Source: a virus (lineage: Duplodnaviria > Heunggongvirae > Uroviricota > Caudoviricetes). Taken from it: a stretch of DNA of 64,000 nt. The stretch lies in IMG/VR virus record IMGVR_UViG_3300032038_000006. One strand, given 5' to 3'. A program made the translations under genes and the position numbers. Shown here one piece after another: positions 47,800 through 48,143 of this stretch (position 1 is its first letter; every line of letters begins with the position of its first letter). The notes below the pieces were generated by a model. The model was not told the origin of the DNA. It ran no database searches and saw nothing but the letters and a program-made list of their open reading frames with translations.

Positions 47800-48143
47800 G
47801 GGGGCGTAAAGGTTTCGACAGATTTCTGAGTTCCCTATCTGCAAGCGGACGGCAACCATATAGCCACTTTTAAATATAAACGCAGATTATGCAATCGCTG
47901 CCTGAGCAGCACTATTGATACAGTTATAACAGTTTACTAATAAAGAAGGGCTTTATAACATAATATTATTCTTTATTCTCTACATTGGCTTGGTGACATT
48001 GTAGTAGTATTAATGACCAATACGGCTCCGTCATTCGTGAACCCGAAAGAGCACGGCGGCAAGAGAACAGGGTCGGGTATTCTAAGCTTGTAGACGATAG
48101 ATATGACGAGGTTTGGACAGGAGTTCGATTCTCCTCGCCTCCA
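47800..48143 (+). ncRNA. ssrA: tmRNA (ssrA) transcribed from a phage-type promoter; tag reading frame ends ...ADYAIAA then TGA
   Basis: 5' end GGGGGCGTAAAGGTTTCGAC. 3' end GGACAGGAGTTCGATTCTCCTCGCCTCCA pairs with the 5' end and carries a T-arm. Internal GCAGATTATGCAATCGCTGCCTGA. CCA is not encoded. Confidence 0.75.

Follow-up and report, generated by a model that had tools for sequence, protein, structure and literature searches.

Background

Transfer-messenger RNA (tmRNA) genes are reportedly present in cluster C mycobacteriophages such as Bxz1. They are also documented in huge phages (Al-Shayeb et al. 2020, PMC7162821), and a phage tmRNA alone is known biology. Here we analyse a tmRNA gene in a 64,000-nucleotide stretch of DNA from a virus of the Caudoviricetes (IMG/VR record IMGVR_UViG_3300032038_000006), which as a whole is called the window below and gives all coordinates. 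The gene does not encode its CCA end; it is followed without any gap by a predicted ribozyme of the hepatitis delta virus (HDV) type, and then by a homing-endonuclease gene (HEG) of the GIY-YIG family. We consider it likely that the phage tmRNA is functional and that its 3' end is made by this co-transcribed ribozyme, which would be part of an inserted ribozyme-HEG module.

Several known systems come close to parts of this arrangement. HDV-like ribozymes cleave 5' of their own first nucleotide. In twin-ribozyme group I introns, the lariat-capping ribozyme GIR1 forms the 5' end of the HEG mRNA, and SegB of phage T4 is a free-standing GIY-YIG homing endonuclease located in the phage tRNA region. 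R2 and other retrotransposons without long terminal repeats (non-LTR), which reside in rRNA genes, are said to carry HDV-like ribozymes at their 5' ends. Genomic islands reportedly integrate into the 3' end of ssrA and leave a duplicated gene end behind.

The ribozymes nearest to ours are the theta ribozymes, a minimal HDV-like class which Kienbeck et al. (2024, PMC10879173) described at tRNA 3' ends in gut phages with a recoded stop codon. The criterion used for them is a cut within +/-5 nt of the 3' end of a phage tRNA, usually one without CCA, and CCA is encoded in only 4.5% of the theta-associated tRNAs. Self-scission of tRNA-adjacent theta ribozymes was demonstrated, and genes for a nucleotidyltransferase and for a DRB0094-family ligase are enriched in the phages which carry them. 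Neighbouring genes were identified in that study through tRNAscan-SE only, and tmRNAs, homing and endonucleases are unmentioned (PMC10879173). We did not find the tmRNA-adjacent ribozyme segments described below in the searched part of the published theta-ribozyme supplements, and the searchable literature yielded no arrangement of a tmRNA, an HDV-like ribozyme and a homing endonuclease or GIY-YIG protein. As far as we have checked, what is new is a CCA-less tmRNA 3' end which is defined by a ribozyme and fused to a HEG of a tmRNA-neighbouring family.

Results

The tmRNA gene

ARAGORN calls a one-piece tmRNA gene at exactly 47800-48143 on the + strand, with the tag ADYAIAA* and a coding part at nucleotides 83-106 of the gene, and the Rfam tmRNA model RF00023 matches 47800-48144 over its full length with 92 bits (E = 1.8e-34; the gathering score of the model is 47 bits). 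An earlier reading of the letters alone, here called the original prediction, had proposed a tmRNA at this place; the sequences which it quoted are where it had put them, and it was right that the two ends of the gene form the tRNA-like domain. The acceptor stem GGGGGCG/CGCCTCC has 7 bp, including the alanine identity pair G3.U70, and its positions 5-6 covary among relatives. The 3' part (48119-48143, +) consists of the T-arm at 48119-48135 (AGGAG-TTCGATT-CTCCT), the 3' acceptor strand CGCCTCC at 48136-48142 and the discriminator A48143, at which the gene ends.

The tag frame GCA GAT TAT GCA ATC GCT GCC TGA (47882-47905, +; ARAGORN) encodes (A)ADYAIAA followed by a stop, as had been proposed; the resume codon is one for Ala, the C-terminus is of the hydrophobic-AA type and a stop codon closes the frame. 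The identical tag is found in two other large viral contigs, L342 (also labelled L105/L005) and L002, the latter being a 122-kb IMG/VR contig from a relative of the window phage (92.8% identity over 6.7 kb and ~90% over a further 3 kb, directly upstream of the tmRNA gene and into it). The tag ANTYALAA of the loci L472 and L474, for which an exact-match search of IMG/VR gave no hits, is separated from ADYAIAA by a 3-nt in-frame indel. To judge from this in-frame indel and from the stops seen, which are TGA or TAA, the tag frame behaves as a coding sequence. The original prediction had also suggested that the AIAA end of the tag, if different from that of the host, would retarget tagged proteins. 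This idea finds no support: bacteria such as Opitutales, Xanthomonas, Bdellovibrio and Marispirochaeta natively have DYAIAA at the end of their tags (a degenerate tag search of bacterial genomes, which returned mostly chance protein C-termini, recovered 12 true tmRNAs), and since several bacterial lineages have them natively, the AIAA end is no evidence of retargeting. As a separate observation, the IMG/VR contigs L103, L104, L106 and L108 (164-237 kb) form a second group of large-phage tmRNAs, for which ARAGORN predicts a 24-residue tag, DVELSTMTFED[AV]M[SA]FVGADYAIAA. It has the same ADYAIAA end, and either it is unusually long or its resume codon is mispredicted.

The promoter, the tRNA-like domain and the region of pseudoknot PK1 of the window tmRNA are also present in L002, and the PK2-PK4 regions of the two genes are unrelated. 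The first 117 nt and the last 62 nt are 97-98% identical to L002. The middle with PK2-PK4 (47917-48081) shows 73% identity to the HEG-bearing locus L472, versus 55% to L002. Since the ends are of the L002 type and the middle is L472-like, the tmRNA gene is a mosaic. The pattern of identities points to recombination within the gene, or else to co-conversion held in check by the pairing of the two ends, which has to be kept.

A predicted HDV-like ribozyme in place of the CCA

CCA is encoded by 45 of the 46 tRNA genes of the window and is not encoded by the tmRNA gene, where A48143 is followed by GGTCGG. (The sole tRNA without CCA in the ARAGORN coordinates is tRNA-Leu(TAA), at 20407-20481.) The tmRNA genes of L002 and L342, which lack the HEG, do encode CCA, and bacterial tmRNA genes exist which have an identical T-arm and acceptor 3' end but no CCA. 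The original prediction had overlooked both the absent CCA and the HDV-like ribozyme which abuts the 3' end of the tmRNA.

This predicted self-cleaving ribozyme, 64 nt long (48144-48207, +), was recognised from Rfam matches below threshold, a descriptor scan and helix covariation, and its first base directly follows A48143. Helix P1 pairs 48144-50 with 48173-79 (GGTCGGT/ACCGACT, with a G1.U wobble), P2 is a perfect 8-bp helix of 48152-59 with 48200-07 (ACAGAAAA/TTTTCTGT), and P3 pairs 48160-62 with 48170-72 (CCC/GGG) around the loop L3, TCCACGC. P1.1 is formed by CC of L3 (48164-65) and GG of J1/4 (48180-81). P4 is a mini-hairpin of 3 bp at 48186-94, within a P4/L4 segment of 14 nt (GCAACGTTATACGG), and in the junction J4/2, GC-AAA, the catalytic C is at 48196 with AAA after it. 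The core of L3 and J1/4 is invariant in ribozyme alignments. Since HDV-like ribozymes cleave 5' of their first nucleotide, the predicted cut falls between A48143 and G48144, at the discriminator of the tmRNA.

In a permissive Rfam scan (E <= 10) covering 48050-49100, the model RF02682 matched 48144-48206 with 28.2 bits (E = 0.0056; gathering 44) and RF00094 matched 48142-48208 with 29.1 bits (gathering 50). The descriptor scan gave one match in the window and none in 20 shuffled windows, and the minimum-free-energy fold recovers P1, P3 and P4. The core CCTCCACGCGG...GGGCAAC recurs in more than 130 phage loci of IMG/VR, joined there to P1 helices which differ in sequence and are paired throughout; an exact-match search of IMG/VR for the window ribozyme itself gave no further copies.

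A second HDV-like candidate, at 18117-18169, was rejected as probably degenerate: its catalytic position is A, its P1.1 is mismatched and it has no Rfam match. Its core ACCTTCACGTGGT is that of the ribozyme of locus L479, its fold z-score is -1.5, and it has no match in GenBank phages. It ends a stretch of ~700 nt poor in open reading frames (ORFs), 17460-18170, which reaches from a tRNA-Gly to the next promoter, and it may be a decayed ribozyme beside an RNA of no known kind.

The endonuclease gene and its insertion

Directly after the 3' strand of P2 one reads a ribosome-binding site, GAGGTG (48208-48213, +). The HEG that follows (48218-48904, +) encodes 228 aa, matches PF01541 with 34.5 bits (cut-off 22.6), conserves the GIY...YIGQT motif, and contains four in-frame TAG codons, at residues 19, 125, 164 and 190. 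Five bases past its stop codon begins a remnant of the tmRNA 3' end (48910-48923, +), made of an 11-nt direct repeat, CCTCGCCTCCA, and then CCA; the next bases are ACAG, as in L002. L002 has the same tmRNA locus with CCA and with neither ribozyme nor HEG, and an HEG-less tmRNA allele of this type reads ...TTCGATTCTCCTCGCCTCCACCAACAG. The comparison with this near-isogenic relative therefore defines a 777-nt insertion, made of the ribozyme, the HEG and the 11-nt repeat, between the discriminator and CCA. The original prediction had placed a GIY-YIG gene immediately downstream of the tmRNA; the gene is indeed there, but it is not merely adjacent, as it is inserted into the end of the tmRNA gene. 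In tblastn searches with the HEG, the best near-full-length identity was 38%, with partial matches up to 53%.

The link of endonuclease, ribozyme and tmRNA at other loci

The HEG has 620 homologues, and we examined the genomic context of ten of them, with 48-89% identity to the window HEG. All ten lie directly 3' of a phage tmRNA scoring 57-125 bits. In eight (L472, L474, L476, L479, L485, L486, L487 and L489) the tmRNA has no CCA, and the discriminator is directly followed by the first base of an HDV-like ribozyme. In L472, L474, L482, L485 and L489 a remnant made of acceptor strand and CCA lies 3' of the HEG; in L472 and L474 it comprises ~23 nt of tmRNA 3' sequence, extending as far as the T-loop, together with CCA, and the length of the duplicate, 11 nt in the window, is about 9-23 nt across loci. 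The remnant of L474 (3679-3703 of that contig), ~23 nt plus CCA (GGTTCGATTCTCCTCATCTCCACCA), has three differences from the resident tmRNA end and looks, by this sequence, as if it stemmed from the 3' terminus of another tmRNA allele. It starts ~22-23 nt upstream of the insertion point, a distance reminiscent of that between cut and insertion in I-TevI-type enzymes.

The nine ribozymes (that of the window and these eight) have nine different P1 helices of 6-7 bp, eight different perfect P2 helices of 7-8 bp and four types of P3, as tallied from an explicit segmentation and not from a MAFFT alignment. P1.1 shows a compensatory change, CC/GG to TC/GA, in L479, and the catalytic C is invariant in all nine. 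The HDV-like Rfam scores of the relatives are 26.6-36.5 bits. Five of them (L485, L489, L487, L476 and L479) have 6 nt in place of P4, and these P4-less ribozymes fit the short-L4 motif of theta ribozymes.

Between the window and L472 the identity is 72% for the tmRNA, 92% for the ribozyme and 88% for the HEG, and between L472 and L474 it is 95%, 69% and 75%, respectively. In these sequence comparisons, then, the similarity of ribozyme and HEG is discordant with that of the tmRNA. L472 resembles the window only over the tmRNA-ribozyme-HEG segment.

We also approached the question from the ribozyme side, with the pattern CTCCA-N16-17-CCTCCACGYGG in IMG/VR, which gave ten junctions with a paired P1. 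An Rfam-confirmed tmRNA ends at the ribozyme in L501, L512, L513 and L541. Among these junctions a HEG is present only in L535 and L541, and there is none within 1.4 kb in L501 and L512. L515 and L535 have an identical ribozyme, downstream of which L535 shows a clean insertion of ~790 nt with a GIY-YIG gene. So ribozyme-ended tmRNAs exist without HEG, and the HEG is mobile independently of the ribozyme. In the subgroup formed by the window, L472, L474 and L486, ribozyme and HEG are fused and co-diverging.

Two further features of these loci were noticed. A conserved hairpin, AAAATGGTGGACA...loop...TGTCTACCA, precedes the HEG in L476-L481, L482, L485, L487-L489 and L541 and is absent from the subgroup of the window; its carriers are the subgroup with P4-less ribozymes and the ribozyme-less locus L482, and it may be a regulatory or endonuclease-binding element. 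Close to the junctions of tRNA-like ends and ribozymes in related phages there are ROOL RNAs (280-305 bits) and one GOLLD RNA (325 bits), at L515 7306-7902, L535 2936-3535, L538 9006-9609 (-) and L501 11355-11762 (-); in L515 the ROOL RNA starts ~100 nt past the ribozyme.

Promoter and transcription unit

A sigma-70-type phage promoter lies upstream of the tmRNA gene (47753-47781, +): TTGACA (47753-47758), a 17-nt spacer and the extended -10 element TGTTATAAT, of the form TG-n-TATAAT (TATAAT at 47776-81; score 12/12). It is identical in L002. It is one of a family, as a 45-nt consensus occurs in 37 near-identical copies in the window, from 1854 to 61852 and on the + strand only, with the layout AAAAATTTGAC[TA]-T-rich spacer-TG-n-TATAAT-ATnTATAGAAAA, or, with the spacer spelled out, AAAAATTTGAC[TA]TTTTT..ATA..TATGnTATAATATnTATAGAAAA. 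In the tmRNA promoter a 13-nt inverted repeat (47757-69 with 47783-95) flanks the -10 element, one half coming from the T-rich spacer and the other from the conserved ATAGAAAA downstream; this repeat could be an operator or merely a part of the consensus.

The original prediction had transcription start about 19 nt from a consensus phage promoter. The promoter is well founded, and the mature 5' end of the tmRNA lies 18 nt past its -10 element. Transcription probably starts near 47788, and the position of the mature end 18 nt after the -10 element means that the tmRNA probably has a leader of ~11-12 nt. No + strand terminator was found between the promoter at 47753 and the next one, at 49806. 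Therefore the tmRNA, the ribozyme, the HEG and two small ORFs probably belong to one transcript.

Genetic code and genome context

The window has 40% G+C and its ORFs are on the + strand, most of them devoid of TAG. ARAGORN finds 46 tRNA genes in four clusters, among them two tRNA-CTA genes, and the U1-A72 pair is common to both tRNA-CTA genes and the tRNA-Gln genes of the window. The TAG codons 19 (in YIG-Q-T) and 190 of the HEG align to invariant or near-invariant Gln of standard-code homologues. On these alignments and tRNA genes, TAG is read as Gln in this phage, in keeping with the original prediction, which had taken TAG not to be a stop.

The ORF upstream of the tmRNA gene, 46991-47740, has an in-frame TAG at 47702, directly after which comes a hairpin, GTGCGATA...TATCGCAC. 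With TAG as Gln the ORF gains 12 codons and then ends at TAA; this TAG may end translation in early infection and allow read-through at late times.

In blastn searches with the tmRNA region and 20 kb of the window, no relative was found among GenBank phages. Pfam, PHROG and NCBIfam matches in the window include several GIY-YIG and PD-(D/E)XK nucleases, GH113, UvrD, SPFH/flotillin and a Ro/TROVE-like RNA-binding protein, the closest relatives of which are human-faecal fragments and Bacillus phages (36-38% identity). Genes of selfish-nuclease type flank tRNA arrays at 6559-7590, 14549-15196 and 55861-56571. They encode a 343-aa protein with a C-terminal GIY-YIG, a protein with GIY-YIG and NUMOD1, which directly precedes the first tRNA cluster, and a PD-(D/E)XK (PDDEXK_5) protein. 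PDDEXK_5 genes are also found near the tmRNAs of L472, L480, L482 and L488.

RNA-repair genes

The window encodes a set of RNA-repair proteins: a T4 Rnl1-like ligase, a DRB0094/Rnl2-like ligase, a fusion of a polynucleotide kinase (PNK)-like kinase with an HD domain, two metallophosphoesterases (8029-8736 and 32905-33471) and a Pol-beta-type nucleotidyltransferase. The PNK-like P-loop and HD protein (11775-12698, +; AAA_33 and HD) is a candidate RNA end-healing enzyme. It has partial matches to TIGR04075, TIGR01663 and, in its HD region, TIGR02692, all far under the model cut-offs, and this HD region weakly resembles that of CCA-adding enzymes. This protein may remove the 2',3'-cyclic phosphate which the ribozyme would leave. 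The ORF 25628-26467 was considered as a CCA enzyme and rejected, being only a generic Pol-beta-type nucleotidyltransferase (phrog_388, 1e-11; RlaP, E = 0.03; no PDB match). A macro domain and the Ro/TROVE-like protein (phrog_850) join this dense RNA-repair and RNA-handling set, the genes of which lie at 8029-8736, 11775-12698, 22180-23640, 25086-25559, 25628-26467, 29695-30624, 32905-33471 and 41245-42372.

Discussion

Proposed maturation of the tmRNA

The analysis shows how the gene is built, how the ribozyme is laid out and that its helices covary, that the insert is present in one related phage and absent from another, and that this endonuclease family is linked to tmRNA genes throughout; we infer self-cleavage, end healing, CCA addition, trans-translation and homing, in the following way. 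Host RNA polymerase would transcribe tmRNA, ribozyme and HEG from the consensus phage promoter, and RNase P would probably trim the leader to the 5' end of the tmRNA. The ribozyme would cut 5' of G48144, leaving a tmRNA which ends at A48143 (A73) with a 2',3'-cyclic phosphate, and the same cut would give a HEG mRNA with a 5'-OH and a folded ribozyme at its 5' end. The cyclic phosphate could possibly be removed by the phage kinase-HD protein, by the phage metallophosphoesterases or by the HD domain of a host CCA enzyme, after which a CCA-adding enzyme would complete the 3' end post-transcriptionally. Since there are CCA-less bacterial tmRNA genes with an identical T-arm and acceptor, such a maturation is feasible in plausible hosts. 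AlaRS would then charge the tmRNA by virtue of G3.U70, stalled ribosomes would be rescued and their peptides tagged with (A)ADYAIAA. The HEG would be translated only after the amber suppressor tRNAs of the phage have become active, and its product would probably cut HEG-less tmRNA alleles and so spread the module. The benefit to the phage, about which we can only speculate, could be that ribosomes which have stalled on damaged host mRNAs, or following amber read-through, are made available again.

Several observations weigh against this picture. All the HDV-like Rfam scores (26-36 bits) are under the gathering cut-offs of 44 and 50, obtained with models (RF00094 and RF02682) which leave P2 and P1.1 unscored and expect a longer P4. 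The minimum-free-energy fold of the ribozyme is not above shuffles in stability (z = +1.2), a value which is uninformative because pseudoknots are ignored. The covariance model, which the original prediction had named as the check to be made, recovers the tmRNA over the full model but gives PK2-PK4 a posterior of only ~0.1-0.3 (Infernal), the region 5' of the tag having a high posterior. Neither SmpB (tblastn and motif search) nor a CCA-adding enzyme was found in the 64-kb window. Two of the ten HEG loci, L482 and L491, retain CCA and have no ribozyme, and the linkage of ribozyme and HEG is not constant either, as L501, L512 and the pair L515/L535 show. Finally, standard homing does not account for the 11-nt duplication.

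Other explanations of the locus

The absence of CCA, when 45 of 46 tRNA genes of the window encode it, the absence of a detected CCA-adding enzyme from the window and the poor alignment of PK2-PK4 would all be explained if the HEG insertion had inactivated the tmRNA, leaving a decaying pseudogene, the ribozyme serving only to process or regulate the HEG mRNA. We hold this to be very improbable. Neither the acceptor stem with G3.U70 nor the T-arm nor the tag frame is damaged; the tmRNAs of L472 and L474 are 95% identical and have the same tag, despite ribozymes and HEGs which have diverged to the 69-75% level; eight independent HEG-bearing tmRNAs score 57-125 bits, the predicted cut falling at the discriminator in every case; and natural CCA-less bacterial tmRNA genes share the identical 3' end. 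Another possibility is that the insert is a HEG-encoding group I intron or other splicing element, the body of the tmRNA being joined to the downstream remnant ...CTCCACCA. The 3' end of the tmRNA is in fact duplicated on both sides of the insert, certain bacterial tmRNA genes do harbour group I introns, and some HEG homologues bear the source annotation 'group I intron endonuclease'. This explanation is nevertheless scarcely credible: the Rfam scan of 48050-49100 yields nothing of the group I intron class at E <= 10, the ORF leaves only 74 nt on its 5' side and 5 nt on its 3' side, too little to hold an intron core, the HDV-like fold takes up the 74 nt, and L476, L479, L486 and L487 carry ribozyme and HEG without any downstream remnant. 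We give almost no credence to the idea that the tmRNA is a fragment of host ssrA from a prophage boundary. It is true that many IMG/VR contigs have bacterial-type tmRNAs which share the 20-nt 5' end, and that its 29-nt 3' end is identical to that of more than 100 metagenomic tmRNAs, but the likeness is confined to the tRNA-like ends: bacterial tmRNAs, whether taken from viral, metagenomic or genome collections, agree with it only over the first ~22 nt and the last ~32 nt, and full-length relatives are found in phage contigs at the syntenic site, as in the related phage L002. The gene has a phage promoter, phage genes and tRNA arrays on the same strand surround it, and no integrase or attachment-site context was seen. 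On these comparisons the tmRNA is a phage gene and not a captured host ssrA, as the original prediction had held.

A more serious alternative concerns the origin of the module. The ribozyme could be an older accessory of the theta type, which matures tmRNA 3' ends independently of the HEG, the HEG merely tending to land in the 3' flank of tmRNAs; in the window, a segment comprising the 3' part of the tmRNA, the ribozyme and the HEG would then have been recombined in whole from another phage. The loci L501 and L512, with tmRNA and ribozyme but no HEG, speak for it, as do the absence and presence of the HEG downstream of the identical ribozyme of L515 and L535, the HEG without ribozyme of L482 and L491, and the PK2-PK4 region of the window, the greater likeness of which to L472 (73%) than to L002 (55%) suggests recombination within the gene. 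We find it on the whole unlikely, though well worth keeping in mind, since the indel with respect to L002 is exactly ribozyme plus HEG plus 11-nt repeat, the divergence of the ribozyme tracks that of the HEG and not that of the tmRNA, and in the window group the ribosome-binding site of the HEG abuts P2 with neither spacer nor promoter. It must be noted that this alternative alters the evolutionary reading but not the proposed mechanism of RNA processing.

We return to the reading which we prefer, a functional tmRNA ended by the ribozyme of an inserted module. A stronger version of it can be put forward tentatively, and we would not quite bet on it: ribozyme and GIY-YIG endonuclease may together constitute a composite mobile element of a kind not described so far, specialised in phage tmRNA genes, in which, in place of a splicing intron, the ribozyme recreates the 3' end of the interrupted RNA at the discriminator and CCA is left to the cell. 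If this were true, insertion into an essential structural-RNA gene would be harmless, the HEG would borrow the promoter of the tmRNA, and its TAG codons would delay translation until the code switch.

Implications

If the ribozyme does make the end of the tmRNA, the role of theta ribozymes widens from tRNAs to the RNA of ribosome rescue, and such phages rely on cyclic-phosphate removal as well as CCA addition. The link between this GIY-YIG family and tmRNAs offers a testable case of a HEG which targets a structural-RNA gene, its location being tolerated perhaps thanks to the ribozyme. The loci also supply compact natural parts, namely ribozymes of 53-66 nt, which would set a 3' end to the very base, and a nuclease that is a candidate for specificity to tmRNA genes. 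A single transcription unit of a TAG-recoded phage would thus connect the code switch, ribosome rescue and the timing of a selfish gene.

Comparison with known systems

With the phage tmRNAs already described, the gene of the window shares its one-piece form, its location in a large tRNA-rich phage and a presumed role in ribosome rescue during infection. It differs from them in that it encodes no CCA and ends in a cis ribozyme, and no SmpB was found in the window.

The likeness to theta ribozymes extends to the core, with P3-L3 of the form ...CC-T-CC-ACG[CT]-GG..., GG in J1/4 and C-[TA]AA in J4/2, to the predicted cut which abuts the discriminator (at 0 nt in the window) of an upstream gene without CCA, and to the phage itself, which decodes TAG as Gln and has a gene for a DRB0094-like RNA ligase. 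However, the upstream RNA of the window is a tmRNA and not a tRNA, the P4/L4 segment has 14 nt against 5-7 nt of L4 in the published sequences, which places the window ribozyme outside the short motif, and this ribozyme is fused to a HEG, no tRNA of the window having a ribozyme.

Like SegB and the islands in ssrA, the insert brings a GIY-YIG gene beside genes of the tRNA type, is present or absent between close phages and is flanked by a duplicated 3' end. Unlike them, it has no integrase, separates the discriminator from CCA, and includes a ribozyme. In function, the nearest analogies are R2 and the twin-ribozyme introns. With R2 it has in common that a mobile element occupies a strongly transcribed structural-RNA gene, shares the transcript of that gene and would be freed by an HDV-like ribozyme; the element of the window is, however, a phage HEG moving at the DNA level and not a retrotransposon, and the predicted cut would also make the functional end of the host RNA. 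The twin-ribozyme introns, finally, resemble our locus in having a dedicated small ribozyme at the 5' end of a HEG mRNA within an RNA gene. In the window there is no splicing intron, the ribozyme belongs to another class, and CCA addition would take the place of exon ligation.

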